A stretch of DNA of 40,816 nt from Rhizaria sp. SCN 62-66 (Eukaryota). Location of the stretch: assembly GCA_001724265.1 (NCBI GenBank), contig MEDY01000281.1, forward strand, positions 1-40,816. The letters run 5' to 3'. Under the pieces are notes generated by a model. The model had not been told where the DNA came from, searched no databases, and saw only the letters and a program-made list of their open reading frames with translations. Of the stretch, positions 2,915 to 40,770 are shown in pieces. A program made the position numbers and the translations under genes. The stretch's first letter is position 1, and each line of letters opens with the position of its first letter.

Positions 2915-5900
2915 TTAGAACGCAGAGCCGCGCGCGATGGCAACCATGGTCGCGTCGCTGGGCACGCCCGTAAAGGCGGGCACCACGAGCGGCGGCTCAA
3001 CTCCGCTGTGCACCGGCGGCGGCAGCGTGCGGCGCGGTGCGTTAGCGTCGCTCTCCGCGGGCGCCATGTGCGCTGGGTCAACGCTCGGCGTCACGTACTC
3101 TGTCACACGCTCAGTCGCCGCGCTACCCGCGCTGCCGCTGGCGCTGTCAGGGCTACCGCTGCTGCCGCTGATGCCAGCGCCTGCGTTAGTACCGCTGGTG
3201 CCCGTGGCGGTGCTCGTGCCGCCAGCAGTGACGCCGCCAGCGCTGACGTTTGCGCTGGCGCCGCTGCTCGCCGCGCCCGCTCGCGGCGGGCCTGCGCGCG
3301 GCACGCTGCTGACCGGCGCGACGGGCGCGGGCGGCGGCATAAACCGCGTTGACGGTGCCGAGCTCATGATGGGCGCCGCTAGCGCTGCGGGCGCGCGCGC
3401 CGACACGGGGAGGTTCGTCGTGGAGGGCGGCGGCGGCATGTGCGGGTCCGGCGCGGCCTCTACGGCGCGCACAATTGCGGGCGCAGGCCGCGGCGCTGGC
3501 ACTGGCGCGGGCGGCGCCGCAGCCGGTGGCGGGCGCGGCACGCGGCCCGGTGTGCGCGTCGGCGCCGCTACCGTCGGCGCTGCGGGCGCAGGGGCAGTCA
3601 CGACGGGCGAAAACGCGGGCGTAGGCGTCGGCGTCGGCATAGGCGTCGGCGTTGGCATGTTTGCAGGCGCAGGCATAGATACAGGCGCAGGCGTGCTCGT
3701 GACGGGCGCTGGCGGAGAAGGAGGCACGCGCGCGGACGCAGGAGCGGTCACGGGTCTGAACGGCGGCACCGCGGCGCGCGGTTGCGCCCGCGACGGCTCG
3801 GTCACAGCGCCGACCGGCCCAAGCCCTTCGTCCGCGGCAGGCGGCGGCACAAAAGCCGTGAGGTCAACCGGTGGCACGGCGACGGGGGGCACCAGCGGCG
3901 TTGTCGCACGCGGGTACCGCGTCACCTCGGTCTCGGCCGGGTGCGGCGTCAAGTGCGGGTTGCGACGGTCGCGCTCACGCGCGGCACGCTCACGCGCGGC
4001 ACGCTCACGCTCAGCACGCTCACGTTCAGCACGCTCACGCTCAGCACGCTCACGTGCTGCGCGTTCACGCTCCAGGCGTTCACGCTCCAGGCGTTCGCGC
4101 TCATTGCGCTCACGCTCATTGCGCTCACGCTCACTGCGCTCACGCTCCGCAAGTTCGCGCTCTGCGCGCTCACGGTTGTTTCTCTCGCGTTCGACGCGTT
4201 CACGCTCAGAGTTTTCACGCTCAATGCGCTCACGCTCGGCGGCTTCGCGCTCGGCGGCTTCGCGGTCAGCGCGCTCGCGCTCAATGCGGTCGCGCTCGGC
4301 GCGTGCGCGTTCAGCGCGTTCACGTTCGCGCACGCGGTTGCGCTCACGCTCGCGATTGGCAGCCACGGCAGCTGCAGTTGCACGGGCCTCTGCCTCCGCC
4401 TCTGCAGCAGCAGCGGCGGCAGCCGCCTCAGCAGCAGCGCGCTCGCGCTCAATGCGCTCACGCTCAATGCGCTCACGCTCGCGCCCTAGTTGGCGCTCAC
4501 GCTCTAGTTGGCGCTCACGCTCTAGTTGGCGCTCACGCTCAGCGCGCGCGACACCGGCCGCACGCTCCCGCTCCCGCTCACGTTCGACAGCAGCAGCTGA
4601 GGCGGCGCGCACTCGCTCCCGCTCACGCTCCCGCTCAAGTGCGCGCTCGCGCTCTGCATGCGCCACGCGCTCCTCGCGGGCGCGCTCGGCAGCAGCAGCC
4701 GCAGCAACACGCTCGCGTTCTGCGCGCGCGACGCGCTCGTTGCGCTCGCTCTCGGCTGCGGCGGCCGCAGCTCGTTCACGCTCAACACGCTCGTTTTCTA
4801 TACGCTCATTCTCGATACGTTCACGCTCAAGGCGTTCGCGCTCAATACGCTCGCGCTCGCGCTGTGCACGCGCTGCTCGTTCCGCGCGCTCCCTTTCGGC
4901 GGCAGCGGCGGCTTCGCTACCGACGACGACGCCACTAGAGGCCGCAGTTGCCTCAGCGATGCTGGCAAACGCGGCGGCGCGGGCAGTGGCGGCAGCCTCA
5001 CGGCGTTCGCCAGCGGCCGCAGTGTTGCCCTCGCCGTAGCGCGCGCCCGCGCGGACGGCGTTACGACGCGCAGCGCGCTCAACCTCGGCGGCCGTCGCCG
5101 CGGCCGCGGACTCTCTCGCGCGCCGCTCGTTGCGTTCTCGCAAAAACCGCTCGCGCTCTGCCGCAGCGGCGCGGTCACGGTCCAGAGCCGCCGCGCGCTC
5201 TGCCGCAGCGCGGTTGGCGGCGGCGCGCTCTGCCGCGGCGGCGCGCTCTGAGGCCGCGCGCGCGGCGGCAGCACGGTCAGCCGCCGCGACGCGCTCTGCG
5301 GCGGCGCGAGTGGCGGCCTCGGCGCGCGCGGCTGCGACGGCGTGGCTCTCACGCAGCGCGCGATCGCGGGCAGCGCGCTCACGCTCGGCCCGCTCGCGCT
5401 CAGCGCGCTCACGCGCAAGACGATCGCGCTCGCGAGCAGCGTTCTCGCGTGCGACGCGCTCGCGCTCACTGCGCTCAAGCTCTAAGCGCTCGCGCTCCAG
5501 ACGCTGACGCTCAACACGTTCGCGCTCAGCGCTCTCGCGACTAGCGCGCTCGCGCTCGGCACGTTCGCGCTCAGCGCGTTCACGCTCATGGACAGCACGC
5601 TCACTACGTTCACGCTCAATGCGCTCCCGCTCACCGCGCTCGTTCTCGGCGCGTTCACGCTCTGCCCGCTCGTGCTCAGCACGCTCGCGGTTAGCGCGAT
5701 CACGATTAGCACGCTCGCGAGCAGCGCGCTCACGCTCCAGACCGCCGCGCTCGCGAAGCTCGCGTGCTGCGTTTTCGTTATCTCCATTAGCGGGGTCGCC
5801 CTCAGCGCGTTCAGCCTCCGCGCGGACGCGGGCATTGTGCTCGTGCAAGGCACGCGCACGCTCGACGCGATCGCTTCCGCCGCGTGCGCGGGCGCTGCGC

Positions 5901-8900
5901 TCGAGGAGCACACCCTCTCGCCCAGCCGCCGCACTGCGTCTGCGCTCCCGCACCCGCTCACGTTCGCGCGACAGGCGCTCCGCATCCAGCTCTTGCTCGC
6001 GGCGCGCGCCAGGCACGTGCTCCGCAACAGCGGGCCCCGGCACAGGCGCAGCCGCCGCTGAGCGCGGGTGGCGGGACCGCGCGCGGGGCACAGGCGTGGC
6101 TGCCGCCACAGGAGCAGTCTAGTGACCCAGATTGGTTACAGCAGCTGTGGCAGGAGCAGCAGGCGCAGCCGGCGAAAGAGCCGCGGCATTCGCGTTCGCG
6201 TTTGCTTCTGCGCGCTCGCGCATGCGGCGCGCGCCGATCGCTCGATACTCTGCGAGGAGCTCGCGATGACGGCGGTCCGCGCGCTCGCGCAACCGCCGCA
6301 TACGCTCTCGCTCGCCTCTGCGTTCGCTGTTGTCGCTCTCAGGGCCGCTGTCGGCGATCTCACGGTCACGGTTGCTGCGTTCACTGTCACTCAGCTCGCG
6401 CTCGCGCGCACGCGCCCTGACGGCCGCGCGGCGCGCCCGCAGCAAGCGCTCGCGCACCCGCTCCCGCTCCCGCTCTGGCTGCCGCCCGCGCTCCGTCGCA
6501 GCGCTGCGGGCGCTGCGGCGCACTGAGCCTACGGCGTCGGCGGCGGGGCGGGCGGGTGCGGCACCGCGGGCGCCAGCGCGGCTGCTCGGGCCAGATTCTG
6601 TAACCGCGTCAGTGTCGCTGCCAGGTGCAGCAGCGCGCCTGCGCCGGGCCGCGCTGTTGGCGCCGCGCAGTTCGCCACTGCCGCTGCGCTCGCGGCTGCG
6701 GCTACGCCCGCGGCTGGCGCCATTACTCCGGCCGATACGCGCGCTTGAATCTGTGCTTTCGCTATCTGAGGCCGCAGGTGTGCGGCGGCGACGACGGCGG
6801 CGACGGCGCCGGACCACTCCCGGATTTTCAGTTGGCGTCGAAGCTGCGTTACCTGCGGCTGGAGTGGCATTGGGGTTTGCAGCTGTTGCTACAAGAGCAG
6901 CGCTGTCTGTCGCGGCGTTAGACTCTGCTGACGCGGGAGCGCGGCGACGGCGACGACGCCGGCGCCGGCGAGTCGCGGTGTTGGCTCCGGCATTGGCCCT
7001 TGCGCTGTCGCCAGTGACGTCGACGTCTGCGTTGCTGCGGTTGTTAGTGCGAGCGCGAGTCCGCGTGCGCGCGCGAGTGCGACCCGGGGGCTGCCGCGTG
7101 TCCGCTGTTGTTGCCGCTGCTGCTGTTGGGGCAGCAACAGGAGCAGTGGCAGCAGGAGCATAGTGCGGCACGTAAGCTGGCCGCGCGCGGTAAAACACGG
7201 AAGACGCAAACGAGGGATCGTAGTCGTACCCGAAGTTGTGTCCGTAAGCGCCGTTGCCGCCATACTGAAACAGCGACATGGAGCGCGCGCGGTGGCGCGG
7301 TGCTGAGTTACTATCCTGCGACTGCTGCTGCTGCTGTTGCTGCGGCTGTTGAGACTGGAGCTGGGACTGTTGCTGCGGGTGCTGTCGCGCCTACCGCCAC
7401 GGCGGCTGGGCCTGGGACTGCGGCAGCTGTGAGTGCCCCTGCTGCGCCCGGAGCTGAGACTGCGAATGCTGCGATTGCTGTAACTGAGACTGGGACTGGA
7501 GCTGAGACTGAGACTGGGACTGGAGCTGCTGCGACGGGGCCTGGAGCTGCTGCGACTCGGCCCGCGACTGCGCATGCAGCTGAGAGAGGTCGTTGTAGCG
7601 ACCGCCGACACTGGAGTAAGCAAGACTGACGTCGCCGCTGGTGTCGTCATGCTCGCTGTCCTCGCGGTCACGACTGTGCTCATCGCCATCCTCGTAGTCA
7701 TCGTCGGCGTACTCGGAGTCATCGAGTGCATTGTGGCTGTGGCTGCCGCCATCCTCGTTGCGGTGGGAGTCCTCGTCGCCGTCCTCGTCATCGTCCTCGT
7801 TCTCGTCCTCGTTGTCAGACTCGTCGCCGCCGCGCTCGTGCTCACGGCCGTCTTCGCGCGCGCGACCAACGCCGCTGCTGCTGCGCCGGTGACCGGCGCG
7901 GTTGTCCTCAGTGTCGGCAAGGCTGCCTTCGTCCTCGTTAGCTTGGTCGCCGTGCAAATTGTCGTGGAAGCCACGGTTTACGCTGCGGCGGCCACTGTTC
8001 GCGCTGCCGTTTTCGTTGTTAGCTCCGGTCGTGAGTCCGTGGTGCCAGCGGTGCGCGTGCGCGCTGCCCGGGCCCGCGCGCATGCTGCTGCTACCGCGAG
8101 TGTTTGTGTTTTCGGCATGCGCAGCGGTAGGTGACGTGGATCGAGCGTTATCAGCATGGGTCTCAGCATGACTGGTGGCGCTGTTGTCAATCTCGGGCTC
8201 AGAGCCTTCGTCGCTGCCCTCGTCGTCGCCGTTTTCGTCAGAGCTGCTGCTGCTGCTGCTGCTACTGCTGCTTTCGTCTTCGTCATCGTCGCTCGCGGCG
8301 ACATTGTCTTCGCCGTCCGCCTCAGCGCTTGCGTCAGCGCCAGCGGCTACCTCCTTGTCTTCGTCTCCAGCCCCAGTCTCGACTGTGCTGGCTGCTGCAG
8401 TTGAGCTCAAGCCAGAGCTCGAAGTCTGACTATCGGCGAGCGTTTGAGTCGCAACAGCAGTCCCAGTTGCCACCTCAACCTCTGGCTGTCCGCTGGCTGC
8501 GGCAACTGTCGTCGCCGCAGTCTGCGCTCTACCCGGCGCCACCGCAGCAGCGGCCGCCTTGTCGTCCCTGTCGGCGACCTTGTCCTTGCCATCTTCGCTG
8601 TTCACACCGCGCGCACCAGATGCAGCAACCGCAGCGGCTGCGGAAATGCTCATGCTGGGAGCAGACTGAGACTGCGAGGCTGCCGCGGTCTCGTGAGTGT
8701 TGGTATTCTCGGCGGGAGCGCCGGCGGAAGTGGTAGCAGCGGCGATGCCGGCGGTGCCACTTGAAGTTGAAGGGGCAGAGTCGAAGAACCCACCAGAGTG
8801 GCGGCCGCGCAAGCGCGCGCTCTCGTAGAGGAATTGGAGCGAGCGCATAGTGCGGATAGGCATTGACAGTCGGGTTGAGAGGCCGAATAGCGGCGAAGCC

Positions 8901-9825: not shown

Positions 9826-12660
9826 TTAACTGGTGAGCTCCTGTGAGCAGATTGCAAGGGCAAGCTTTGCACGCAGAACCTCTTTGCTCGAGTAACAGGG
9901 GAGCTCCACGAGCATAAAGCAAGTGTGAGATTGCGGCAGCCGTTCGTCGTTGCGCTCCCACTCTGTCAAGTGAACGCGCATGAATTGCTGCACGTTTCCG
10001 CCACCAGAGCCGCCGCTGCTGGCGTCGAGCCCGGCGGGCAGCTTGGCCATGCCCCACACGAACTGCAGAAACTGCCCGCGCTCCTTGGGCCCCCACTCGG
10101 CGAGCACCTCCCATAGTGCCTCGGCAACGGCGGCCTCGCGCGCGCTCAGTGGCGGCCCGCGCGGCGCAGAGGCGCCCACTGCCGCGCCCGCCTCGCACCG
10201 CGCGCCGTCGGCGCCCACCACCACGGTGAACGCGCGCAGCCGCGCCGCACTGTAGTCTTCGGCACCCGCAAGCCAGCGCCAGGCGGCTGCGGCGCCGCGC
10301 AGCCCCAGCGCCCACCCGCCTGTCAGCGCCGCGCCGCTGGCGCTAGACACCGAGACCGCGCCGGCCGCGGGGTCCACGCCGGCGCGCTGGTCGCAAGCGC
10401 CAGCGCCGTTGGCGTGCGACGCAGCGCCCGCGCGGCTGCTGTCGGCGGCCGCGGGGCCCAGAGCGGCGGCGCCCGCGGCTGCGGCGGGCGCGGTGACCGC
10501 AGCGGACCCCGCGGCAGCGCCGAGCCCGCCGCGGCCGAGCGCGGTCACAAAGGGCGGCCGCCGCAGGTGCGCCGAGGCTGCAGCGGCTCCAGGTGTGGCC
10601 GGGAGAGACCACAACATGCCTTCGCGCACCGCTGCTGCTAGCGCGCCGCCGAACGCGCCGCCCGTGGCTGCCGCAGCCCCCGAGGCCGCCGCGCTGCCCG
10701 CGCGCCTGCCGAGGCCTAGCGCGGCTAGAGATCGTAGCACGGGCGCGTTGCACAGCCGCGCGTGCGCACCTGGGACCACCGCAGCTGGGCCCGCGGCCGG
10801 CGCAGCGGCAACATCGGCGTTGGCCCAGCCGCCCGCGCCGGTAAGTGCGGTCACGGCGGCCGCGGCAAAGGCTGAGCGAGTCGCGAATGTCACGCGCACG
10901 AAGCGTGCTGCGGGGAACAGAGGCGCGCGCCCTGCCGTTGCGCCGCTGTTTCCGGCCGAAGATGCTCCCGCGCCACTGGCAAGGCCGAGAGGGTTGCGCG
11001 CAGCGGTTGCCGCGTCTGCGGCCAGCACACTGTCGGGTAATGCAACTGTGGCCGCTATGTCTGTAACTGCGGCTGCAAAAGCACGCGGCGCGAGCGGACG
11101 GCCCTGACCGTCGGCAAACAGCAACGCACGCGCCGCTGTTACGTCGGCCGCCGCCAGCCGCTGCAGCGCGCCAAGGGGCGCTGTGAATGCCGCGGGCAGC
11201 CGGACGGGAGCGGCGGCACTGTCATCGTTGCCGTCTTCACTGTCGTCGTTGTATCCGTCGTTTGCAATTATGGTGCTATTGTAGCAGTGCGCTAAAGGCT
11301 GAGGAGAGCCATCGGTAAAGCCTGCATTGGATCTACTGAAGAGCTCGCGGATGTCGCTTTCGCTGCTGCGTCCATGCATAGCGTCACTGTCTTCAGCTTC
11401 GTTATTGTTATCTTGAGGCGCTAGAGTGACAGACGATGACGGTAAATCATGCGGAGGCTTCACGTGCCATTCACTACTTTGAGGTTGCACTTTGTCCACG
11501 AAACGTAGATCTTGTTCAAGTACTCCGTCGCGGTCAAAGACGTCAATCCACACCGCTTCGCGCGCACATAGCGCAGACACACACTCTGCCACCGCGTTAG
11601 TTGCGGTGGAGTGGCTTGTCGGAAGAGTGACACAGACCGAGGCGAGGCCGCGGCGCGCTGCCACAGGTAGCCCGGCCACCGCGAGCACCTCACTGTCGTC
11701 CTCGCCGCCGCCGCTGCCGCTGCCCACAGCGCTGTCTGCGGCACTGCTATTTGCTCCAGCATTGTGGTTGCCGCCAGTGTGCGTGCCAAGCCCCGCGCCG
11801 CGGCCCTCGCCGCCAGCGTCGCCGACTACAGCGGCCCACGCCGCAGAAGCAAGTCGCGGGTCGACCGCAGCGCCGGCGCGCGCGGCCAGCGCCAGCAGCA
11901 TGCCGGCCGTCGCGGCCAAGTGGGCCTCGCGCGGCGCGCCTGCCAGCGCGTTGAACGCCAGCGTGTCGCGGTGCGCGCCTTCGCCGTGCGTCGCGTTCGG
12001 CACGGCCACCAGCAGCGGCGGACTTAGCGGCTGCGCGCCCGCGACTTCGGTGCCTGCGGTTAGTGCTCCGGGGCCGCGCGCAAAGCTGGGAACAAAGCCT
12101 GAAACAGCATTGCTTATCGACGTATTGCGACTTGTGCTGTTGCTCATGTTTGTGCTGCCCGCGCTCGTTGTGGCGGCTAAGCGCAGCACACGGCGTGCCT
12201 CGGAGCGCGGCAACCCAATAGCGCTTGCCACAGCTTCTGCAGCTTCCTCAATTTCAAAGCTGCTGCTGTAACCAGTGTAACTTGCATGGCGCAAAGTGCG
12301 GCGCAAAAGAGCTAATTCAACGCTGGAGTTACCGCCATAGACATGCGCCAGCGCGCCACATAGCGCACTTGCGCCAAGGCTCCTGCTCTCTCCGCCGCCG
12401 CCCGCGCCTACACCCTGCGCAGCGCCGCCAGTGCTGCCGCTGCTGCTGCCGCCGTGCGCGGACGCAACAGCCGCTGCAACAGAGGCTGTGAGCACAAGTT
12501 GTGAAACGGTCGCCTCAAGGCCCCACCGGAACGGGCCGGGAAATCCCGCGGCGCCGGCGTTTGTAGCGCCCGTAAGCGTAACGCGCAGCGCATACGCGGC
12601 AGGAACTGCGCGCAGAGAATGGCAGCGCACGTCGCGCAAGCGCCGCGCTAGCTGAACAAG
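9826..12660 (-). other. HECT domain (HERC-type), insertion-expanded; catalytic Cys codon at 9919-9921
   Basis: N-lobe motifs LRVTLTG..AAGFPGPFR, LLVAVPNATHGEGAHRDTLAFN and GMLLALAARAGAAVDPRLASAAWAAVVG. C-lobe LWEVLAEWGPKERGQFLQFVWGMAKLP...RLPQSHTCFMLVELPCYSSKEVLRAKLALAI. Confidence 0.92.
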
Positions 12661-15600
12661 CGCATTGTCTGGCACTGGGCTTGCGCCGATCATTGGAGCG
12701 CTCAAGTCGGCGTTCTGACCGTGACCGTGAGCGAGAGCATGGTCGTGGTTGGCGTGGACGCGTCGCGTTGCCAGAACATCATCCGCAATATCGCCGTGGT
12801 TCATTGCGTTGCTGCTCCCGCCAAGGTTGCTGCTAACATGACGACGGCGCCGCGTGGCTTCATCGCTGCTCGTGCTGTAGTGAAACGCATTAGCGTCCTC
12901 GGTATCAACATCTGCCTCAATGTCATCGTCAGCTTCGGCCTCATTATCAGCGCCAAACTCGAGCTGCGCTTCCGCAGCCGCCGCTTCCGCCTCTGCCTCA
13001 GCCTCGCCCCACAGCTCAGAGTCAGCGTCGGTCATTACGGCGTGAGTTGTCCTGCGTGCTCCTGAATCAGGTTCAGACTCGGAGTCACTGCCACTTGCGC
13101 TGGCTCTGGCAGAAGCACCAGCAAGATTGCTCGCACGGCGGCCGCTGCTTGCGCTAGCGCCGCGCTCATCACTCTCACTAGCAGTGTTTTCGTCAGCGTT
13201 GTCACCAAGAGATGCGTTCGCACTGCTCATGTCTGCGCTGCTATCAAACTCAATGGCGGCTTGACTAGCGCCGGGTACAGGGAGACTTCCTTGCTGCAGC
13301 GGCAGCTCTAACCGTACCGCGGGCGAGGCGTCACAATGCACGCGCGCGGTGGCCATCATCGCCAGCTGCGCCAGTTGCGAGCGCGCAGCGGGAGACGGTA
13401 GCAGCAGTCCTGCGAGTGTGCGCCCGCCCTCTTCTTCCTCCTCCTCGTCTTCGCCAGCAGCAGCGGCCAGACTGTGGTCCTCGCCGTTGTTGTTGTCCTC
13501 TTCGTTGTGCTTACTGTCGTCGTTGTCCTTGGTATCGCTGTCATCGCCCCGGCTTAACTTATCGTCAGCCATCTTGGTGCTCACGGTTACAGCATTGTCG
13601 CTGCGCTGCAACCCGGCACCAACAGCACGTGCGTCGGCCACACTAGCTAAGGCTGCACTCCGCTGCGCGCGCGTTGGCGCCTGTGGCAGTGCAGCCAACA
13701 GCACCGACGCCGGGCCCAGCTCTAACAGACCCATTACGTCGGCTTCAGTCTGCTTGCGCGCGCGGTTAATGCCGCCTGCGCCGTCAGCGCCGTGTTTGCT
13801 AGCACTAGGGTCTATCTCGAATACGCGGCTTACCTTTGGTTCCGCTGCTGCCGCGTCCAGCGTTACAGCCATGGCCAGTTCCAGCATTTCTCCGCTGCCA
13901 TCTGACGCCAGCGTGACCGCAGCGTCTGCAAGCGCGGCTGCGTCAACGCCATGCCAACTGCCCGGTGGGCCAAAGCTGGCGCGGCGCGGCGGTGCAGTAG
14001 CGCGTAATAGTGTCTGCAGTAGCAGGCCCACGCGTAGGAGCACGCGTTGCGAGTCTGCGCTAAGTCGCGCTAATAGCGGCAGTGTGGCGTGCTGTGCAGC
14101 TACAGCAATAGCGAGGCTTTCAACCTGTGCATGCGCACGCGCGCGCGCCCGGTCATTTGCAGCTGCTGCAGACGACTCAGCCAGCGCAAACTCAGTCGCC
14201 GCATCTGCAAGGCCGCTACTTGCCGCAGCACCGGCCCCAGCCTCGTCCTCTTCTTCAGCAATCGCGGCGCCAGTCAAGATCAAACTTGCGGCTGCGTCAA
14301 CCAGCACCGGACTAACAGCAGTAATAGCAGGGTTGGTATTGTTCGGTACAATGAAGGAGTCTATGGGTGGCAGGATGGGGCGCAACGCGGAAGTCAGAAG
14401 GTGTAACGCAGTGGCCTCTTCTTTAGCGGTCTTAGTCGCAGCGAGCGCGCGCAAGCAGCTGGCCCAGATCCACGCAACGGCAACGGCAGCGCGCGCGTGC
14501 GCCCTGGCGCGCGCAGCGCGGCCAAGGCCCTGTGCGGCTGCAGCGCCCGCGCGCACCGCTGCGGCGCGCAGCATTGTCTCTGCGCGCTCAACGCGCGAGA
14601 ACAGCTGCGAATCCTTGTCGCGCTTTGCGTGCAGGCGCACTCCACGCGAAGCTGCGTGCCCGCGCGCGCAGGCAGGCAGCATTGTGCAGTGCAGCACGTG
14701 CGCATTATCCGCGAAGGCGTCCGTTTGCCGCGCGCATTGCCACAACAAAGCGCCACGCGCCTCGGCAGACATCGCGGCTGGCAGTAACTCGCGGATTGCA
14801 ATAGCGACAACTGCAGCGTCAACAACTGGCGCTGCGGCCTCTGCCAAAGCTAGGGCAGCGGCGCGGCTGCTGTTGTTGTGAACAATTGCAGTACCCGCGG
14901 CTTGCGCAATGCCGGTGAGCTACAGAATAGACATCACTGATGTGTAGGACAGCGCACTCATACTTACAGTCGCCGCATTTACGCTATGGGGTGCCGCGGC
15001 AGACACATGTAGCGCGGGCGCGAGAGTTTCGACTGTTGCCTTTGCCGTTGCTGAAGCAACTCGCAGAGCATGCGCAAGCGCAACCGGCACAATAATCAAT
15101 GAACGTGCAGCCGCAGCGTCAAGCATAAGATATAGAGAACGCTGCGCAGCGTCTGCGGCTGCAAACGCACCCTGTTGGTGTAGGTGTCGCGCCCATTGCA
15201 ATGCGCGCGCAAGCCTTTTCAGCCCCAGGCCGTTGCTGGTCCCATCGTCGCTGTCTAACTCGGAGTCCGATTCCGACTGTGGCATTGACTTGAAGTGTCG
15301 CGAGAGCCACTCAGAGGGCAGGTCAGTGACTGCAACGGACACCTTGTTGCTGTGCCGCGCATTGCCCGCGCGCAGTGTCAGGACGCCACACCACGCCTCT
15401 GCGCTAACGCTACAGACCGGCAACGCTAGTTTGTCGCTGTTGCTCATGCCAGCGCCAGCAGTGACGCTAGGCCGCGGTAGCACGCCCCAGCGCTAGGCGC
15501 CAACGCGGATTGCGATGCGCAGCACGCGCTCAATTGCAACAACGGCCTCAAAGCGGCGCGCACTGGCGTCGGAGCGCGCGGCGACGTAGGGAAACAGTAC

Positions 15601-27600: not shown

Positions 27601-30600
27601 GACAAAGCGCTTTTCTACTTCAAACACGCTACTCATGTCGAAGGCACCGGCGCCGCCACCAAACTCGCGCAAGCACTGAGCGATAATAGTAGCAACAGTT
27701 TCAGCAGGTGACAGTACCATTGGTAGCTGTGGTAGAGCGGCAAGCGCGGGGGGCGCAGTTGTAGACGTGCTTCGCGACTGTGGATGCAGCGGTGGCAGCA
27801 CACCCAGTGCGCCACACAGTGTTAATGCCGACGCAGTCGCAGAACTACTACTCGCACTTGCTGAGGCTAAGAACGCGGGGCTTTGACTGTGGGCGCTGAG
27901 TGCTTCTATCCACTGAGTGCGCGCAAGTTCCGTAATACTTGCTATGCGCGTGCGCATCTCGGCCGCTGCTGCAGAGGTTGCGGGCAAATTCGACGGAAGT
28001 ACCAGCGCGTTACGCAGAGTGTCCAGGATACCCGGCCGATATGGCACCGCAACAAAGTCGCGAACAAACGCCAGCTGTGCAGCCTCGCGTTCCCATTGTA
28101 AGCAACAGCTACTGTTGTTCTTGTTGAGTGAACCCGTTTTTGCCGCTGCCGAGGCTGCGGCGTCCATGTAGCGGCGACGGCGCGCGTCAAGCGCCAGCGT
28201 GCGCGCTGCAGTGGCAAGCATGCGGCGCAGTAGTGCGGCGCCAACTTCCGGCCGCGCTGGCGGAAGCAGTGGCGCGGGCGGCGGCGGTAGCGCTAGCGCA
28301 GGCAACAGCGCAGTTGCAACCGCTTCAGTAACAGTCGAACCTGACAGGCTACTCTTGCTACGAATGGGTGTGCGCGCAAGGCATGCTGATAGCCTTTGCG
28401 CAGGAAACGCGGCACGTTTACGGTACAGCAGTAAGACAATCGCTTTATACGCGCGGTGAAGCGCAGGCGGAGTTGAGTTTGGCGGCATTAGCGTCTGTGG
28501 CGGCGGCAGCAGCGGAATCTCACGAAGACTCGGAGTGCGTGGGACGGCCAGCGTCAACGAGGACACAAGTGCGGCTGGACTTGGTGCTACCGGCGCAGCG
28601 TATGCACGTTCATACAGCGCTCCCACGCTATTGTCTCCCGCGCTGCCGTTGGTGCCCATGCCATTGTCCGTGTCAGTTTCATCACGGCCCAACCCACCTT
28701 CACCGTCTGAGAGCGCATAGCCCACGCCTTCAGCAAACAGCGGCAGCTGCGACAGCGCCGCTGTGCTTGCTGCACCAGCTGCTGCGTTTGCAGCTCCACG
28801 CGCTGCATATGCGTTTAATAGCGCCGCAACTGCAGTGGTGTTGCCTGAGTCGATCGCGCGATCGTGACTCTTGCTTGGGGCGCTAACAACAGCTGCCGGA
28901 TTGCAGCCGGCTTCAAACAGCGCAAGCGGTGCAGCTGCAACAAGTGCGGCCATGCTGTTCTGGCGCAGCGCAGTAAGCGTGACAAGAGGCAATCCAGCAA
29001 GCCAGGGTAGAAGAGCCGCGGCTGTGCTTGGAGACTGCTGAATAACACCGCATGAGCTCCTCAGCACTGCCTGCGCTGCAGTCTCCCCGGGTGCCGCGTT
29101 CACACTGTCACCCCCGTTGTCGGACATTGCCAACGTGGTAGACATCGCTTCAACACCTGCAGCCGCGGTGGCGAGCTCTGCAGCGCTGACAATAATGTCG
29201 CCAAGCAGGCCACCACCAAGCGCACGCAGTGATGCGCGCGTGGAGCCGACCGCTGCTGTACCGACACCGGCCAGCGCGACCGCGGCACGCGCACGGGCAG
29301 TTGCCACAGCAAGAGTCTCGCACGCACTCGAGATTACAGCACCAGTTGCGCCATCTGAAGGCGAGAGCAGCAAGCGGAGTGCAGCAGCCTGTCCGGCGCT
29401 AAATGCGCGCGCTGTTGCCTGCTGTGCGGCTACTGTTAGCAACGCAAGCTCTCGCGCTGCGCGCGCGGCACCGTGCCCTGACAAGGTCTCAACAAGAGCG
29501 CATTCAATGGACGGCAACACGCTTGATAATGCTAATAGTGCGTTAGCCGTTGGCGCGGTAATCTGTGCGCGCGGAATGCCCGATGCGTGAGCGTATGGCG
29601 GTGCCGCATCGACGCTGTTACCTGCTGACGTTAGCAGCACGGAGGCAACTGTCGCTACACCGCCGCTAAGTGTCGCTGCACGCTGAATCCGCGCCTCCGC
29701 AAGCAGAGGCACACGGTCCAAGCCCCGGGCCGTCGCGCGCGCTGCGTCAGTTAACGGCGCCCACAGCAGCCCGGCGCCGCGCTCCGCATCAACGAGCGGA
29801 AGTGCAAGCGCGCGTGCGTCAGGGTCAAACGAGAGGAATCCGCTGACTCCGCTCCCGGTCAGCCCGCTGCTTCCACCCAGGGGAGCTGCCGCGACAACTA
29901 ATGCCGACGCGCTCGCGCCTCCGTGGCGAGTGGTGGCAGCGTTATGCGGAGTGTTTGAACACGTCAAGGGCTTCCTTATCATTGTCCACGCAGTTTGAAA
30001 AGAGGTTGTCAGATTTGCGGGATAAATCATCAGCGGCGCAAGTGCATATGCCGCGGGGTCTTGATCCGCGCACGGTGTGGCGCCAAACATAACGCCGCCG
30101 CGCGCGCCAGCCGCCGGTCCGCACACGCGCTCCGGCCAGGCCCTGTTGCGCGAGACCGTCACTTCCCCTTGCTCGTCGACGGTTTCCGGCGACGGCGGCC
30201 GCAACGCCCCGCACGCGCGCGCAACAGCGGTGGCAACCGGCGGCAATACCCGCGCAAACCGCGCGCGCGCAAGCGTGGAGTGCGCGGACAGCAGCGGCAC
30301 AACACAGTCGGCGGGGACAGACACACCCAGGTCGCCGTCCTGAAACGTGACTTGATAGCTGCCGTCGGCGTTGACTGCGCGCACAATTGCGGGGTAGAAA
30401 CTGCCGCTATTCCACCGTGCGCGGACCTCGGTACCTGCGCGGTTCGGCGGCGCACTGGCGCTTGAGCCCGTGCAAGCCCCGGCGCTAGAGCCAGCGACAG
30501 CGCTGAGGGGCGGATGCAACGAGTGCGGCAGCGCAAGCGCGGTTTGGGGATCGCCAGGGCCCGCTGCCGCAGCGGCCGTGCGCACGGGCACCGCGGTAGC

Positions 30601-33600
30601 GGCGGCGGCAAAAGGGAGCGGCGCAAGCGAGGGCTGCGTGGCAACAGCGAATATGGCCGTGTCAGTTGGCAGCACAAGTCGGGCCAGGGTCAGCATTGTG
30701 TGGTTGCAAAGCGCCGCGGCAGCAACCGCCGCGGGCCCCGGACGCGCAGCCAGCGTCACAAGCGCCAACGCGCTAGCGGCTGCTGCTGACCCGTGCGGAT
30801 GTGTCGCCGATACCTTAGCCAAGACTGACGGCGCGGCAAGCAGCGGCACGGTGGCCGCAAGACCTGCGCGACTGCCACAGCCCAACAACAACAGCGGCAG
30901 CGGTAGCGGTAACGTGCTGACTGTACCGGTGGCGCCGGCCACTGGTGGTTGCGGCCAACCGGCAGCGGCGCGTGGCAGCAGAAGCTCTGCGGGCGAGACG
31001 GCGAGCCGCGCAGAGGAAGCGCCCCACGGCCACCACGTTGCACCCACTGTGTGATCGCTGTTACTGTCGAGCACACCGGGTTGGTACGCGAGACGTGGTG
31101 CAACAGAAACGCCGGGAAGCCGATGCGTTGCTGTGGGATCGGCCGCAGTGGGCGCAAGACCGGTACCCCATGCAGCGGCGCCAAGCCCGAGCAGCACCAG
31201 CTCAGCCTGCTCTTTTGCGTTGCTCAGAGTCGTGCTATTACCGTTATTCACAGAAGCTGCAGCAATGCGAGCAAGAGATGTTGTTGCAAGCGCACGCTGG
31301 CTTTGTGAAGGATAGAGTAGTGGAAACGCAGCAATAAAAGCACTGCGGAGCGCGAACTTTATAGCACTGGCTGCCGGAAGTGACATAAACCACGGTAAAG
31401 CGGGATTATCCGATGTAGTTGTTGCCGCTGCTGTGTCGTTTTGCTGGGCAGCTTGTGAAAACAAAGCAGTTTCACATGCAAAGCGCCACTCAAGCACTGC
31501 GCGCTGAGCCGGTGACAACGCGACGCATCGTGCCGGTTCCGCTATTGAGGCACGCCCCTTGGAAATGTTGTGAGCCTTAGTCTGCAAAGTCGCACTTTTC
31601 GCAGCTGTTGTTTCGCTTACGGATTGAACACGCGCACGTGAACATGCAGCAGCAAAGGCAGTGACCTCAGCAGCTAGTGCGTTAGGAGCTGCCGCAAGCG
31701 CAATTAACAAACGCGCACTAATCTCGACCGCAGCTGCAATGACTCGCTCGCTGACTGTGGCAACGGCACAGTCGTGCGCAAGGGCAGCAGTTACGCGTGT
31801 CAGGGCGTGAGCCAGGCCAAGGTTTGTAGTCGTATTATGGCTGCTTAAGCAACACAGTGCAGACATGCAGGCGGAGTCATCTTTACGACTTGCATTGAAC
31901 GCGGAAAAGACTCCTGCGTTTTTAGCGCCAACAAAAGGTCGGATTGCTGGCGCGAGCTGGGTACATGTGAGCGTAAGCGCAGCGCGAGAACTCACTTGCC
32001 ACAGCTCACGGTCGCTCCACAGCCCGCTATTACCGCTGCATGTTAGCACAATCGCCGCGGTGGACGCTGAGCACAGTGCGGTGGGCACAACGCCGCGCAA
32101 CACGCCTGTGGCTGCGTCCCAGTACACGCGCACGGATGCAGGACGACTGTAGGCGTTTTGCACAGTGGCAACAGCGGTGTCGACAACGACATCCATGAGA
32201 GGCAGCGGCGTGTGCGACAAAGGATCTACAACAAGCGCAGTCTTTGCCCCGTTTGTTTCACAGCCATTCAAATTGCCACTCGTGCACATTTGGTTGGGAA
32301 ATGGCGTTACCACATTGTGGGCGGCAGTAGTGCAAAGTGTTGCGCTTACCGTTGCTGTGGCGGCGTCAAATGCCCACATTGATAGCGACTGCGAGAGAGC
32401 ATTGTGCAGCACAACCGCCGTTTGCGCGGAGTCAACCAATGAAGTACCAACATTGGTGTCGATCAGCGCAAGAATATCCTCATTGTCAACATTGTTGAAG
32501 CAGGAGCGCTTAGGTTTTGCAAGGCCAAGGACAAAGACACAAGGTTCGCATACAACGGTTGGATGGCTGTCACAATGAGAACACTTGCAAGAATACATCT
32601 CGATTTGGTTGCTACTTTTGCTCGTATTGGCGTTGGTAACGTTTGCGTTATTTGTCCCACAAACTGCGCAAATGTCGACTGTTTTGATGGTTTGAAGCCG
32701 TTCCTGTGTTTTTTTGCGTTGTAGAATTGTTGACATGACTGTGGCAATGGCACGCGCAACAGGGCAGCTTGTGACAGTGCTGCGAGCAATAGCGTCGATA
32801 GCACAGAGGCCGCTGAGGCCTGCCAACTCAAATAACGCAGGCGCTGCAAGAGAAACTGCAGCAGGCAAAGATGACTGCAAAGCGTGCGGCACCAAGCCAG
32901 ATTTTGCGCCAATAGCGACGCTTTGAAGCTGCAGACTGCTGTCTGAGCCGCTTCCCACTACTGCAAACAGCGCGCTGCGCGCTTTGTCGTAGAGCAATGG
33001 CGCCACAGAGAACTTTGCGTTTGTCTTGACGCGGACTCGCTCCCACTCGCCCTCGCCTTTGCTTACTGTCGCAGCCACACAGGCTGCTAGTAAGCTTGCA
33101 AACACCCCGAAGCCTGTTGTGGCAGCCGCTGCAGTGCCAACCATAGTGGTTGAGGCTGTAACTAATGTCCCACGCAGTAACACCGAGGTCGGCCTCTGCT
33201 GCTGCTGGGGTTGCGACGCAGACGGTGACAGCCACGCGTTGCGCTGCTACTGACTGTTACTCAAGCGTGCCCAAAGCGCGCCGCGAGCGGCAAGAAACTC
33301 GCAGACGCGGTCACCAATGGATACCGCAACGGGAGCGCCGAAACCGCGCCGGGCCGAGTCACCAGCCCCCGCCAGCGTCGCGACTGCTCCGGCCAGTGCG
33401 CTGCTGATATTCTCAGGGCTGAGGCTTGCATTAAGAGCGGCGACAGCCGCTGCCGCGGTGGCCACAGAGGCTGCGGCAACGCCAGCGCGTGCAAGTGCAA
33501 GAACTGATGTGGCAACTGCGCGTGCAGGAAGACCAAAGTCCCCGATACAGAATGCGGGTATTGGTTCGGTACGTCCACTTAAGCCCGCGTTGTGAGGCAG

Positions 33601-36600
33601 CGTAACTGTCAGAGGCAGCGGTTGCAACGTATGTGCGTCATAAACAACACAGTTCCCTGGCGCTAGCGGAGATGTCACGACGAGAAACGACTCCAACGCC
33701 TCTGAAGAGGGGACAAAAGCAACACTTGCGCCAGGCAGAAATGCAAGCACCGCCGCCGCCGCGTTGCTCGCATACACGCGTCCACCCACCGTCGCTGAAA
33801 TAAAGCTGCTCGACTCGCTGTTATGCCCACTGCCGACGTGCGCGCTAGGAGCAGTGCTCGAGCCGCTGCGTACGGAGGCGCGACCGGTGCCAATTCGCTC
33901 GAGGCCGCGCTGTGGCGAGAGCAAGAACACCCAGTGCCCGCAGTCACTCGCGGCGATTGCGACTGTGCCGGCGTCGTCGCCGCGACTGTTATCACCGCCA
34001 AGATCAGTATACTCGTTATAATGATCTTTCATATAACCTTCATCGTAGTCGTCATGGTCAATGCTGCTATACCCTCCAACTAAGCTGTTGCTGCTGGCGG
34101 GACTGGATGCAGTTCCAGCAAGGTGCAAGGCCACAATTGCCTCTGACACTTTAGCGCTTACATTGTTGCTTGAGTGTGAGAGCGCCGTTGTGGGGAGTGG
34201 ATTGAGCGCATTATAAACTGATGAAGCAAGCGCGGTTGCTTCTGCAACGGCCGCTGCGCTGTTTGCGCGGTTGTTATTAGTGCCGGTCACCACAGACTCA
34301 GCCGTAGTTGCCGGTCGCACTGTATTCAAAAGACTCGAGTACCGCGCCCATAAGCCAGCGGCCTCGCCTGAAGTTAAGCCGCCATCAGCAACTGCGCGCG
34401 CATTGGACACGGTTGCCGCCGCAGTTGCAGCGGCGCGCGCGGCGGGCGTATGGAATTGCACTGCGCGGGCTGCGGCTAGCAATAGATCGCGGTACAGCGG
34501 TGTTGTTGTTATTGCGGGCGACAAAAGCGCAGTCGCAAGGGCACACGGGAGCTGCGTTGTTCCTACATGACTCAGCTTTGCATTTGCAGTAGCGCCGCTT
34601 GTGCTGTTGCTTGCAATGTCATTCGCAGCAATGGCGTCAATGCAGGCAAGTAAGCACACGCCGACATCTCCGTGTGTGACGTCGCTCACGGCCGTGCCAA
34701 TTTGCTGCGACTGGGGCGGCGGCGCGCGCGGCGCTGGCAGCTGCGCCTTCGCGCCCACGGCCCCCGCGCAGCCCTCCGCAGGCACGCTTGGCCGGACATT
34801 CACGCCGGCGGTGCCGCCAGGACTTGAATCAGCGTCCGCCACTGCCACAACTGCGGCCGGAGCAACCGTTAGCGCGACGACGGCTGTCGGGGTTGGCAGC
34901 AAAACCCAGTGACGACTTGCCGCTTCGCACTGCGCTGTGTTGCTTGCTGCAGCCGTTCCAGTTGGCATTGCGCTCACGTGCGGCGGGCTCAACCAGACAT
35001 CGCTCGCATCGCTGCCATTATCGCCGTCCTCATGCGAGGCGCCTGCATCGCGCTCGCACCAGTCGCTGTCATCGCCGAGGTCTGCTTGGTTTGAGCTGCT
35101 CTTGTCCATAGTCATGCCTTGCTGCGAAGACAACGCGGTTGCGCCCGCGCCGGCGCTGGCCTTGTTGTTGCGGCCTATGTTCCGCCAGCGATCGCCACCA
35201 GGCAGCGGCTGCGACAGGGGCAGGCGGCCGCTGCTTTTAAGTCCAGTGGCGTCTTCTTCTTCTTCCTCCTCTCCATCCTCTCCGTAGCTGCTTAGTTGTG
35301 AAACTGGCGCGCGCGTGGGCACACATTGCGGCGCGGGCGGTGTCATGTAAAGCTCGTCACCCGGCGTTAGACTGCAAGGTGGACTGGCAACAGGGACGTC
35401 CGCAGTGTTCGTTGCTGACGCTGCTGTTGCGCTTTGCCTTAAAGCATCCGGGGAGCCGCGGGGACGCTTTTTGCGCACACTGCCGCTCGTGTCAGACATG
35501 GCCTCGGCACTGGCACTCCCAGTCGCAATACTGCTTGCGCTAGCGGCTGCTCTTGCGTCCGCAGAGGCAATATCACTGCAGCTGTAGATGATAGGACCTG
35601 TGTCGCGAAGCCACGCGGATGGCAGCGCGCCTAAGAATGCGTGTGATTCCGCGAGATCACGACGCGCAGCACTGTCATAACCAGCGAGAGCACTAACGTG
35701 GACGCTGTCATTCCAGTTTAAGAGCAGCCGGTCAGGGTTATCCTTGCCCGCAGCTGCAACCGCGAGTAAAGCGCTTGCAAACGTACTGGCACCCGCCGCA
35801 GTCACAAAGTCGCAGCGAGAGTCGTCGACAAAAGCGCCGCCCTCTGGGGTTGTGCGTTTGATATAATAGCGCGATTCCGGGACTTTTGCACCCGCGTGCG
35901 ATGATTTTGGGTGCAGTTTTAAAAATGGCGCCAGAGATTGCTTGACATAGGCAGTCTCCGCCCTCTTCGCAGCGGTTTCATTACTGTTACCGACAACCTC
36001 CACACTAAGGGCTGCGTCAAAGTAGCTCGAGCAGACAGTGCTGTTAGCCAAGTTCCACGCCGGAATGTCCGTTGCACCGCCGACAGCGGCGGCCTTCAGC
36101 GCCAGCGCCGCATGCGCGCGCGCCGCGGTCCGCGCTACTGCCGCGGTCAGCGCCAGCTCCGGCTCATCACCCTCGCTGCTGTTGCTGCTGTTGTTGTTGC
36201 TGCACGGCATGCTCTTGCGCAAGTCTGCTTGTGCGGCTGCAACGCCCAGCACTGACGCTGCACGTGCCTCACCATCGCTGCTATGGAGACTATTGAGACT
36301 CTTGCCCGTAACGTCAGGAGTGCTCTGTCCACTGGCGGTCGCAGAACGGCTCGAAACAGCGCGTCCTTGCGGACATTGCGGCCTGTGTGCCGGCGCGCGC
36401 GATGACAGCGGCCACAGCTGCGGCGCGGGGTCGTCGCGACACGTGCACTCGGACCAGGCAGCCTGAAGCGTTTGTGTTAAGTTGTCGCACTTTCCCGAGT
36501 CTAAGTCACCGTCACCATCTATTGCAGCTGCCGCTCGAGACTCAGCGGCGGAGTCCGCAACTGCCTCCGTCTCGGCCTCAGCGTCGGCGCTGCCCCAGCC

Positions 36601-39078
36601 GCCGCCGCGCGCGCCCGCGTCAGCCATGCGCCACAGCCAGCTCACGCGGTCGCCCGCGGCCGCAGTGGCGCCAGGGTTACCGCCAACGGCCGCCAGCAGC
36701 GCGTCGCGGCACTCACGCACTGCCGAGGCCGCCGCGTTTGACCCAGCACGCGTGCCCGCTGCACCCGCGCCGAGCCCCAGCGCTGGCCCCGAAGCGCCGC
36801 GCGCTTCTGCGTCTGCGCTTGCGCTCGTCGTCGCCACACCGCCAGTCGAGCTGCCCGCCGCAGCGGCTGCCGCTGCTGCGCTGGCATCCGTGTCGGCCGC
36901 GAGCGCGGCGACGGCGGCGTCGCACGGCGCGTTGATGTTGGTCACCGTAAGGGCGCCCTCGTCGGCCGCGGCAGAGGGGTACAGAGAGAGCAGGCCTGTG
37001 GCGAGACCGCCGCCGCCGCCTGCGCCGCCCGCAGCAGCCGTGGCCGCAAGTGCTGCAGGCAGGGACGCGCCGAGGGCTGTTGCGCCGTTGGTGTCGGTGA
37101 ACGGCACTGCTAGCACGCCGCCGACCCATGGGCGCGGGGCAATCGAGCTCAGCAGCGGCTGTGCAGCGCAGTGAGACTGGGACTGCTGCTCTGGCACAGA
37201 CTGCGAGTGTACCTGCAGCTTTAGCTGCGTGTGGTGAGGCTGAGGCGGCAGTGATTGCGCGTCAGGTGGCGCGAGCAGAGACTGCGACTGGAGCTGGCTC
37301 TGGGCAGTGTTACCAGCACGGCTGCCATGGTTATAGCTGTTGCCCATAACAAGAAGGGGAATCGTGGACTGAGCACTTGCGCTAGCGCTGGCGCTGTGGT
37401 GGTTGTCACTGGCCGCAATGCGAGCGGCCCACGCAGCCTCTTTTGCCTTGGCCTTTGCTTGAGCGGCAATTTCGTCGCCGCTGACGTCAACATCACCAGT
37501 GCTCGGTAGGCCTGCTTGTACAGCGCTAGCTGCCACCAATGCGCTGCTACTGCTGCTTGGGTTCATTTGCACACCGGTGCTTGTTGTCGCAAGCACACCT
37601 TCTTCTTTCTCATCACCTTCGTAGCTGTTGTCTCGGTCACGCATCGGGGTTTGCGCGGACTGCGTGGCGGCATGCGCAACGCAGCTCTGCTTCAGAGCAC
37701 GCGTGTCAAGCCACACATCGCCGCCGAGCGAGACTAATGTGCTGACACCCTCGCTCGACTCAACCGATGAGTCTCGAGCCGTGCTTGATTCACGATTTCT
37801 GTTCACACCCGCTTGATTGCCACTGCTTTCAGCATCTTCCTTGTTGTTATTGTATAGCTCATGCAGCCTGCGCCAGTGCGTGCGCGGGGCCGCCTCTGGC
37901 ACGGCAGCCGCAAGCGGCACATCCGCGGGTAACCCGTAGCTGCGCACTGCCACGGACAAGTCGTCGCCGCTGATGCCGCCGCGCATGCACACAGTCACCG
38001 CGCCTGCGCCCGCGCTATCGCCTGCGCTGCTGCTGCTAGCAGTGGCCGTGGGCTGAGAGGAAGTCGGAGGCTGAGGCTGAGGCAGGGGCAGCGACAACGC
38101 GCGCCCCGGTCCGGGGCCGACCGACGGCAGGACTAGCGACGTCACGGCCGCCAGCGCGTCAGAGAGCCTTGCTGTCAGCGCGAGCGAGGCTGGGGGAAAA
38201 AGCTGCGGCGCAGTCACGACGCTTGCTGCACCGGGGCCGGCGTAGGCGCCTGCTACGACGCCAGTGTACGCGTCGCCTGCACAGCTGTATACGGCGCCGG
38301 TCGCGTCTGACGGCAAAGATAGCAAGGCCGAGTCAAACAAAGTGCCGACGCCGCTGGTTCCAGCGCGCTGCCGCTGCAAAACCTGCTGCGGACGCGCAGA
38401 GTGGCCGTTACTTTGATGCTGTTGCTGCGTTTGCCGTTGCTCCAGCCGAATCTGCTGTTGCTCTTGCTGCTGGCTTTCGCTCTCTTGCTCGCGCTACCAC
38501 TGCGCCTGCGCGGCCGTTAGATCAAGCGAGTAGCTGTTTGCGCGGCGATTTTCCATTGCAGCGTACGTGCGGAAGGGCGCGAGACGCTTCGAGGCGAGCG
38601 GCACGCACTCACAATACTTGGCGGACCAGCCGTCGTAGCTCACCCACGCGCTCTCCACGCCCAGGCGGTCAATGCGCGCGAAGTACCACGTGTTGGTGTT
38701 GTCCATGCAGTCAACCACGCTGCCTTCGCGCAGACCCGCGCGCCAGCGGGCGTCTCGCGCGGCGGCCGAGGCCGCGGCGGAGGCTGCGGCGGGCGGCAGC
38801 GGCAGTGATAGCGGAAGGGGCGGCGGCGGAGGCAGGCTCCACAGAGGTACAAGCGCAACCGCGGCGGGAAAGGTGCGTGAGTCGGAGCAAGATGGCGGAA
38901 GCGACAGCCATGACTGTGTTAAAACCGCGTTTGACAAAGGCGCAGGAGCAGCGACTGAAACGACCGGTGCCGCCGGTGCTGGAGCCAGAGGGGTAGTTTC
39001 AGCGGCAGGGGAGGCAGCGGCCGCAGCAGGCGCACTATGAGGCCCAGAAAGCTATGAAATCGCCGAGCGGGGGTGCAT
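9826..39078 (-). CDS. Giant (~9,750 aa) HECT E3 ubiquitin ligase, HERC1/HERC2/HECTD4-like; 5 internal TAG read as sense
   Basis: Track ORFs 38494..38937, 33247..38379, 15493..33183, 14920..15483 and 9826..14847 share one frame (all left ends = 1 mod 3). I translated each gap and found only TAG at 39052, 38494, 33247, 15493 and 14920. Candidate ATG at 39076-39078 (AAC ATG). TAA at 9826-9828 follows a complete HECT C-terminus. Confidence 0.85.
14920..14922 (-). other. In-frame TAG, sense codon or the 3' end of a 48-nt intron
   Basis: Context MSIL*LTGIAQ. The segment 14967->14920 also reads GTAAGT...TTCTGTAG (48 nt, frame-preserving). Confidence 0.5.
15493..15495 (-). other. In-frame TAG, putative sense codon
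   Basis: CGC GTT GGC GCC TAG CGC TGG GGC GTG. GC-rich on both sides, with no good splice signals. Confidence 0.8.
22483..22665 (-). other. Agenet/Tudor-like domain, copy 2
   Basis: FLRSLRPGHLVDARDLHGKWFFARVVSVHAAAVRVTFDGWRNNFDETIPFALADRIAPFGT. Confidence 0.75.
30301..30438 (-). other. Tudor-like domain
   Basis: AGTEVRARWNSGSFYPAIVRAVNADGSYQVTFQDGDLGVSVPADCV matches the G..V.A.W....Y.A.I.......Y.V.F.DG pattern. Confidence 0.75.
32539..32670 (-). other. Cys-rich putative zinc-binding module
   Basis: CAVC...YSCKCSHCDSHPTVVCEPC contains three CxxC pairs. Confidence 0.45.
33247..33249 (-). other. In-frame TAG, putative Gln
   Basis: AGT CAG TAG CAG CGC = SQ*QR, directly flanked by two CAG Gln codons and followed by SQPQQQR. 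Confidence 0.85.
38494..38496 (-). other. In-frame TAG, putative Gln
   Basis: Context AQAQW*REQESESQQQEQQQIRLEQRQTQQQHQ. Confidence 0.82.
38563..38745 (-). other. Agenet/Tudor-like domain, copy 1
   Basis: WRAGLREGSVVDCMDNTNTWYFARIDRLGVESAWVSYDGWSAKYCECVPLASKRLAPFRTY aligns by eye with copy 2. Confidence 0.75.
39052..39054 (-). other. In-frame TAG at codon 9 after the candidate ATG
   Basis: ATG CAC CCC CGC TCG GCG ATT TCA TAG CTT TCT GGG. It could alternatively be a splice acceptor (TTTCATAG). Confidence 0.55.
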
Positions 39079-40582: not shown

Positions 40583-40770
40583 GTACGTTGCGCTGTTTAT
40601 TTCGCCATATTATACTGCAACGTGTTTTTATGAACTTTTGTGTTGTGTTTTATTTGAGGCTTTGGCATTGCCAAATTATCGTAGCGCTTTGGCATTATGT
40701 AATATGAATAAGCTCTTCGCTCACTGCTTTCTTTCTTTGTCACTTTATTTCTTGTTGTCGCTTTGTGTGC

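Follow-up and report, generated by a model that had tools for sequence, protein, structure and literature searches.

Two adjacent giant genes of a GC-rich eukaryotic metagenome contig carry in-frame TAG codons that are probably read as an amino acid

The window analyzed here is the whole of contig MEDY01000281.1, a 40.8-kb metagenome contig (40,816 nucleotides) in which two neighboring genes on the minus strand, designated gene 1 and gene 2, are interrupted in frame by TAG codons (Table 1). The pair, which amounts to 11,760 codons, is flanked by one gene on each side. A preliminary description of this DNA had reported seven in-frame stops across ~11,760 codons, all of them TAG, and had proposed that TAG is read as an amino acid in both genes; counting the codons of the minus-strand frame confirmed the number, the positions and the identity of the seven stops. 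Of the 14 public runs listed, 11 contain the DNA of the window; they come from 8 studies, whose sources were bioreactors, wastewater, activated sludge and a microbial fuel cell.

Table 1. Genes, in-frame TAG codons and domains of the window.
Feature	Position	Strand	Description
Flanking gene, 5'-truncated	2..1801	+	599 codons; 77% GC; GC at third codon positions (GC3) 0.875; TGA 1799-1801; no in-frame TAG
Gene 1	2915..8947	-	ATG 8945-8947 to TAA 2915-2917; 2,010 codons; in-frame TAGs 7391 and 6119
TAG	6119..6121	-	gene 1 codon 943; context LGH-TAG-TAP
TAG	7391..7393	-	gene 1 codon 519; Q-rich tract; context PPWR-TAG-ARQHPQQQ
Gene 2, predicted giant HECT-type ubiquitin ligase	9826..39078	-	ATG 39076-39078 to TAA 9826-9828; 9,750 codons; five in-frame TAGs (39052, 38494, 33247, 15493, 14920)
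HECT C-lobe	9841..10131	-	Pfam PF00632, E 9e-18, profile positions 214-300 of 306; catalytic Cys TGC 9919-9921
TAG	14920..14922	-	gene 2 codon 8053; context MSIL-TAG-LTGI
TAG	15493..15495	-	gene 2 codon 7862; context RVGA-TAG-RWGV; ends P0003
TAG	33247..33249	-	gene 2 codon 1944; CAG-TAG-CAG (SNSQ-TAG-QRN)
TAG	38494..38496	-	gene 2 codon 195; context AQAQW-TAG-REQESESQQQ
Presumed MBT/Tudor-like domain	38539..38748	-	between TAG 39052 and TAG 38494; paralogue at 22459-22668
TAG	39052..39054	-	gene 2 codon 9, provided that ATG 39076-39078 is the start
Aha1-like Hsp90 co-chaperone, first exon	40144..40583	+	146 codons; GC3 0.89; no TAG; Pfam Aha1_N, E 1.6e-10

In the coding frame of the two genes (frame 0), the 11,760 codons include seven TAG, no TGA and no internal TAA codon, and the other two frames of gene 2 contain 279 and 415 stops. 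In the eight inter-TAG segments, frame 0 is free of stops and each other frame carries between 3 and 243 of them; for the three segments of gene 1, the stops per frame number 0/16/91, 0/4/15 and 0/6/25. Since frame 0 is open in each segment and the off-frames are full of stops, a single coding frame runs throughout without frameshift, as the preliminary description had held in noting the lack of TAA, TGA and frameshifts. Selection keeps one frame open over its whole length, and TAG is the sole stop tolerated in it. The earlier statement that composition stays coding-like across the TAGs likewise stood, the GC content of 61-nucleotide windows at the TAGs being 0.54-0.74, which places them between the 11th and 82nd percentiles of coding windows. 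The TAGs sit in normal coding composition, not in AT-rich spacer or intron.

Public gene callers split the locus at the TAGs and cut gene 2 into P0003 (5,896 amino acids), P0004 (175 amino acids) and P0002 (1,648 amino acids), a point in favor of ordinary stops between several tandem genes. It is nevertheless hardly credible that the TAGs are such stops, or that they arose from assembly or sequencing errors. The pieces lie in one frame, meet at junctions with no spacer and keep coding composition, whereas the true intergenic spacers of the window measure 880-1,110 bp with a GC content of 0.39-0.49. The next in-frame ATG after the TAGs is 15 to 814 codons away, and in one piece the first ATG falls inside a domain; the 185-codon segment past TAG 39052, which has no stop in frame 0, contains its first in-frame ATG only 115 codons on, within the domain. 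In gene 1, the first ATG of the 1,067-codon open 3' part lies 814 codons past TAG 6119, which excludes a separate gene for this part. All five TAGs of gene 2 precede the HECT C-lobe and the catalytic cysteine in it. As judged from the sequence, only readthrough could make the HECT C-lobe, the 1,067-codon 3' part of gene 1 and the MBT/Tudor-like domain.

Contigs of four runs, designated X4, X5, X7 and X9, were compared with the window over positions 2900-22800. A contig of X4, obtained in another study (record 4, 13022-15630), differs from the window at 12 positions in 2,609 nucleotides and keeps TAGs 14920 and 15493. No difference was found in a contig of X5 (record 12, 15002-15525), which keeps TAG 15493, and the JGI contig L001, which matches the window without any difference over 1,125 nucleotides, has both TAG 14920 and TAG 15493. 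In X9, a polyA metatranscriptome library, one contig (record 27, 6085-6490) spans TAG 6119 ungapped, unspliced and unedited, with three differences elsewhere. P0004, P0003 and P0002, the pieces delimited by TAGs, are letter-identical on five, four and seven contigs, respectively. Recurrence of the same TAGs in independent runs and in a second strain rules out errors; the TAGs are real, stable DNA. Among the contigs listed from other runs, none bridges TAG 7391 because of heavy repeat cross-mapping in this region. Depth spikes, the highest of which reaches 325 in X4, were observed at 6884-7547, ~11703 and ~15670, along with numerous false joints and loose ends, since CAG/CTG- and GCN-rich low-complexity repeats are common to contigs of other organisms. 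In the spacer at 8876-9539, cover by X5 and X9 is low or absent where X4 runs on, which is at most a weak hint that X5 and X9 hold RNA. At least two strains of the organism that owns the contig occur across different studies.

The differences between runs, comprising 40 listed rows and 78 further rows, were also used to assess constraint, all counts being made among those listed. Thirty-six of the 40 are supported by X4, nine in spacer and 27 in coding sequence. Fourteen of these 27 coding differences are synonymous and 13 non-synonymous (two of the latter fall in the same codon), for an expected synonymous proportion of 27-30% (P = 0.005-0.017). Past the last TAG, six differences are synonymous versus four non-synonymous. 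The four differences from the other runs consist of one synonymous and three non-synonymous changes. Divergence between X4 and the window amounts to 9/~860 (1.05%) in the spacer (8967-10027) and to 12/2,609 (0.46%) in the coding sequence of the contig described above. The synonymous bias of the strain differences indicates that both genes are under constraint.

This constraint bears on the possibility that the genes are nonsense-mutated pseudogenes, or dying genes, in which the TAGs are true premature stops, an explanation that we consider improbable. Both genes evolve fast and are of low complexity, homologues were detected for the HECT C-lobe only, and three of the seven TAGs are located in Q-rich tracts, where CAG is one transition away from TAG. 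TAG is also the stop to which mutation leads most readily here, with 49-51% of the single-base nonsense changes giving TAG for the codon usage of both genes. The chance of drawing seven TAGs had been put at a naive (1/3)^7 in the preliminary description, which is too small: under the nonsense spectrum, the probability is 0.006-0.009 (~0.007) for seven of seven and 0.013-0.017 for six of six, and position-specific composition gives 0.005, so that the argument had been overstated about fifteen-fold. The all-TAG pattern is notable, yet not decisive alone. Decay is opposed by the 11,760 codons without frameshift, TGA or TAA in a frame whose off-frames are full of stops, by the presence of the same pattern in two adjacent genes and by the fixation of the TAGs in a strain diverged by ~0.5% and in samples from different studies and years. 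The strain differences lean synonymous downstream of the TAGs as well, and the catalytic motif is intact. On this last point the preliminary description was right: the Pfam match to the HECT catalytic end has an E value of 9e-18, and LPQSHTCF of gene 2 aligns with LPSAHTCF of HUWE1, which contains the catalytic cysteine of the HTCF motif (E 1.4e-11 for the C-lobe alignment).

Location of the TAGs within short in-frame spliced introns was considered, since the sequence GTACGT that follows the Aha1-like exon suggests that the organism probably has introns. Only two sites have intron-like ends. TAG 14920 ends a 48-nucleotide GTAAGT...CTGTAG stretch (14920-14967) with a GC content in the 5th-11th percentile of coding windows and two strain differences inside, and TAG 6119 ends a 21-nucleotide GTAACC...TAG stretch (6119-6139). 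For TAG 39052, a 5' intron that ends near 39035 (...cctcatag) is conceivable. The two differences in the 48-nucleotide stretch, however, turn ATG into ACG (X7) and ACA (X4), both encoding Thr, as would be expected for a codon, and the polyA-library contig retains the 21-nucleotide stretch at 6119. The five other sites lack a GT...AG frame, with GC contents of 0.57-0.74 versus 0.36 in the putative intron downstream of the Aha1-like exon. In addition, all seven introns would need a length divisible by three, with no intron of any other length in 35 kb, for which (1/3)^7 would be the expected frequency. Introns are thus a highly improbable explanation for the TAGs.

TAG is rare in both genes. In the absence of stop avoidance, position-specific composition predicts ~41 TAA, ~76 TAG and ~47 TGA codons. 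The seven TAGs observed versus ~76 expected (0.6 per 1,000 codons) correspond to an approximately eleven-fold under-use. GC3 is 0.88-0.89 in the TAG-free flanking genes and 0.61-0.69 in the TAG-bearing genes. Because of this rarity, a serious variant of the translation of UAG as a sense codon has to be weighed, in which UAG is leaky or ambiguous in an otherwise standard code, near-cognate transfer RNAs (tRNAs) read it through, and long, weakly expressed genes tolerate a few UAGs. The restriction of the TAGs to two genes with weak codon bias fits this proposal, and only three gene ends are available in the window, so that TAG terminators elsewhere in the genome would be compatible with it. We nevertheless regard it as unlikely, since five successive readthroughs in 9,750 codons would yield hardly any full-length HECT ligase without highly efficient decoding, which would amount to reassignment. 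Classical programmed readthrough involves one leaky stop, located close to the 3' end, in a stimulatory context such as a C at +4 or a downstream motif, whereas the UAGs found here are multiple (five and two per gene), extend from codon 9 to codon 8053 and thus throughout the open reading frames (ORFs), are not near the 3' end and have no special context. The base following TAG is C in five of the seven sites, and C follows 47% of the NNG or NAG sense codons (P = 0.18). A C at this +4 position had been tried as a leaky-termination signal on account of P = 0.015 relative to first-position composition; the signal was gone with the NNG/NAG control.

Together, translation of UAG as an amino acid, with UAA and UGA still terminating, has in our estimate a probability of roughly 60% and is the best-supported explanation, ahead of pseudogene decay, sequencing error, in-frame introns and tandem genes. 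The analysis shows that one frame continues over six to seven TAGs, that the TAGs persist in different strains and samples, and that the genes are constrained; continued translation past TAG, the tRNA involved and its amino acid are what we infer. The proposal made in the preliminary description is partly supported: it stands as the leading one, with a statistical argument that was overstated and a signal that comes from two genes only.

Several points weigh against translation of UAG. The signal is confined to two genes and seven codons, and TAG, under-used approximately eleven-fold, is far less frequent than in the UAG-sense organisms described below. Six TAG sites are firm and the one at 39052 is probable, as it depends on the start codon, for which ATG 39076-39078 is the sole in-frame ATG after the last upstream TAA or TGA. 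Recurrence in other runs was seen for three of the seven TAGs, namely 6119, 14920 and 15493. Support from RNA is limited to a single assembled contig, as opposed to raw reads, that covers one site and stems from a library in which DNA may be present. The 48-nucleotide stretch ending at TAG 14920 retains the appearance of an intron. The gene ends of the window are TAA, TAA and TGA (three of three, with no TAG), three being too few to establish the loss of TAG as a terminator. Neither tRNA genes nor Rfam matches were found in the window (none of either). Finally, no homologue could be aligned at any TAG site by the representatives and word-index searches: in an exhaustive search of the representatives, a query of 1,200 residues encompassing two TAGs had three matches, all of them the window's own pieces, and the word-index searches at the TAG sites gave self matches only.

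If UAG is translated, the ribosome would read it through as an amino acid, and UAA and UGA would still end translation. A tRNA with the anticodon CUA would pair with UAG and not with UAA, as in other UAG-only codes, and would most simply be derived from tRNA-Gln(CUG) or from a tRNA-Leu; a release factor acting poorly at UAG may contribute. The rarity of TAG and its occurrence only in two weakly codon-biased giant genes suggest that such a reassignment would be young, inefficiently decoded or partly ambiguous. An early or incomplete stop-to-sense change of UAG in an undescribed GC-rich eukaryotic lineage, in which UAG is decoded yet approximately eleven-fold rare and occurs in long, weakly expressed genes, is accordingly put forward as a tentative and rather doubtful refinement. 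Were it true, the organism would offer a natural intermediate stage in a high-GC genome, where models based on AT pressure would not lead one to expect a stop codon to be lost.

The amino acid can be guessed only weakly, with Gln as the first choice and Leu as the second. Three of the seven TAGs are in Q-rich tracts, one of them as CAG-TAG-CAG. Within five residues on either side of the TAGs, Q was found 7 times versus 2.1 expected (P = 0.036) and W 4 times versus 0.7 (P = 0.009), with I also enriched (P = 0.039); these P values are uncorrected for 20 tests and provide hints only. The context of TAG 14920 would suit Leu. A single-sequence fold of 601 residues spanning TAGs 15493 and 14920 had a mean predicted local distance difference test score of 39 and a predicted template modeling score of 0.25 and was unusable for assigning a residue type.

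Nuclear codes in which UAG alone has changed are few, as the preliminary description had stated, and are described for the rhizarian exLh, for Iotanema and Scotinosphaera and for a small number of ciliates (PMC5304391, PMC11687900). In exLh, a member of the Sainouroidea, UAG encodes Leu and both UAA and UGA are stops (Panek et al. 2017, PMC5304391). A total of 384 UAG codons were found in 71 exLh genes, on conserved Leu columns and less often in highly expressed genes, and the genes end in UAA (56) or UGA (15) (PMC5304391). The window resembles this code in having only UAG in frame and in its three gene ends, which are TAA, TAA and TGA. The rarity of UAG in highly expressed genes of exLh is likewise matched here by its absence from the strongly codon-biased flanking genes. 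In contrast, seven UAGs in 11,760 codons is a far lower usage than in exLh.

In Iotanema spirale (Fornicata) and Protocruzia, UAG encodes Gln and UAA remains a stop (PMC5304391; PMC11687900). The likeness to the window resides in the UAG-only change and in the three TAG sites located in Q-rich tracts, which fits an origin from CAG. The Q enrichment around the TAGs is weak, however, and is equally explained by nonsense mutation of CAG. UAG encodes Leu or Gln in phyllopharyngean ciliates and Ser in Scotinosphaera (McGowan et al. 2024, PMC11687900). This source reports UAG in 78-91% of the genes of the phyllopharyngean ciliates, at GC contents of 27-54% (PMC11687900). These ciliates share with the window the use of UAG as a sense codon and a preference for UAA among stops, and several of the cases likewise come from metagenome-derived assemblies, but UAG is far rarer in the window. 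In Condylostoma and Blastocrithidia, a stop codon is also translated inside genes and stops still work at gene ends; UAA and UAG together, or all three stops, are affected there, and only UAG occurs in frame here. The Amoeboaphelidium-type code, in which both UAR codons encode Gln (PMC11687900), was rejected because TAA ends gene 1 and gene 2. Among the papers listed by a search of the literature, supplements aside, none reported a reassigned UAG in a protist that lives in wastewater or is GC-rich.

If confirmed, the window would add a further case to a very small class and an independent data point on the uncoupling of UAG from UAA. The case would be notable for being GC-rich, unlike ciliates and widespread in wastewater systems, and the very low usage of UAG could show the first steps of reassignment. 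There is a practical consequence as well: since standard gene callers have divided the 9,750-codon gene into three or more "proteins" in public databases, annotation is wrong in eukaryotic bins of this organism.

The product of gene 2 ends with the HECT C-lobe, which is preceded by an Ala/Gly-rich stretch; no HECT N-lobe was recognized in gene 2, the profile match being restricted to its positions 214-300 of 306 and the HUWE1 alignment to the C-lobe. The N-terminal domain, which we take to be MBT/Tudor-like from pattern recognition rather than from a database, is 39% identical over 96 residues to its paralogue on the same strand (BLASTP, E 4e-14). Pfam returned a weak Tudor_2 match elsewhere in the protein, with an E value of 3e-05 that is below the cut-off. 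These features hint that the giant HECT protein may be a ubiquitin ligase that reads chromatin or methyl-lysine. Among 1.84 billion representatives, P0003, P0004 and P0002 had no homologue except themselves.

The product of gene 1 has a signal-peptide-like start and a Pro-rich C terminus, along with tracts that are acidic, poly-Q or poly-R and a coiled-coil-like region that is ER-rich. It contains two runs of 10 Arg and ~700 residues of ERER/AERER coiled-coil-like repeats. The sequence suggests a secreted-looking protein of low complexity, for which neither a Pfam family nor a homologue was found.

The contig is supported as eukaryotic by the HECT C-lobe, the Aha1_N exon followed by GTACGT, the AT-rich spacers of ~1 kb, the contigs in the polyA-RNA library and the result of an Atlas search. 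In this search, one family set was common to 30 of 30 matches of the HECT end, and three clusters among the matches listed were 100% Eukaryota. Genes of the window have a GC content of 60-77%, with ORFs of up to 30 kb without introns, and we take the organism to be intron-poor. Ciliate macronuclear DNA is unlike this contig in view of its GC-rich genes, its 30-kb intron-less ORFs and its ordinary spacers. Neither P0002 nor the Aha1-like exon had a relative in the viral contig collection that was searched, and there is therefore no sign of a giant-virus origin. A search of genome contigs revealed no further DNA of the organism, and a metagenome scan revealed one identical contig of 6.2 kb.

The flanking gene at the left end of the window belongs to a 77%-GC region (1-1860) in which five or more of the six frames of the two strands are open for at least 150 amino acids; its frame was picked as the longest ORF only, and no Pfam family was found for its 599 codons. 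At the other end, the Aha1-like exon had no match in the PDB and no usable match in the Atlas search; one relative was detected, P0005, with 36% identity. The GTACGT that follows the exon opens onto more than 230 nucleotides at 36% GC, and this AT-rich stretch is a probable intron. A (GT)n microsatellite at ~40775-40816 closes the window and probably caused the assembly break at the end of the contig.

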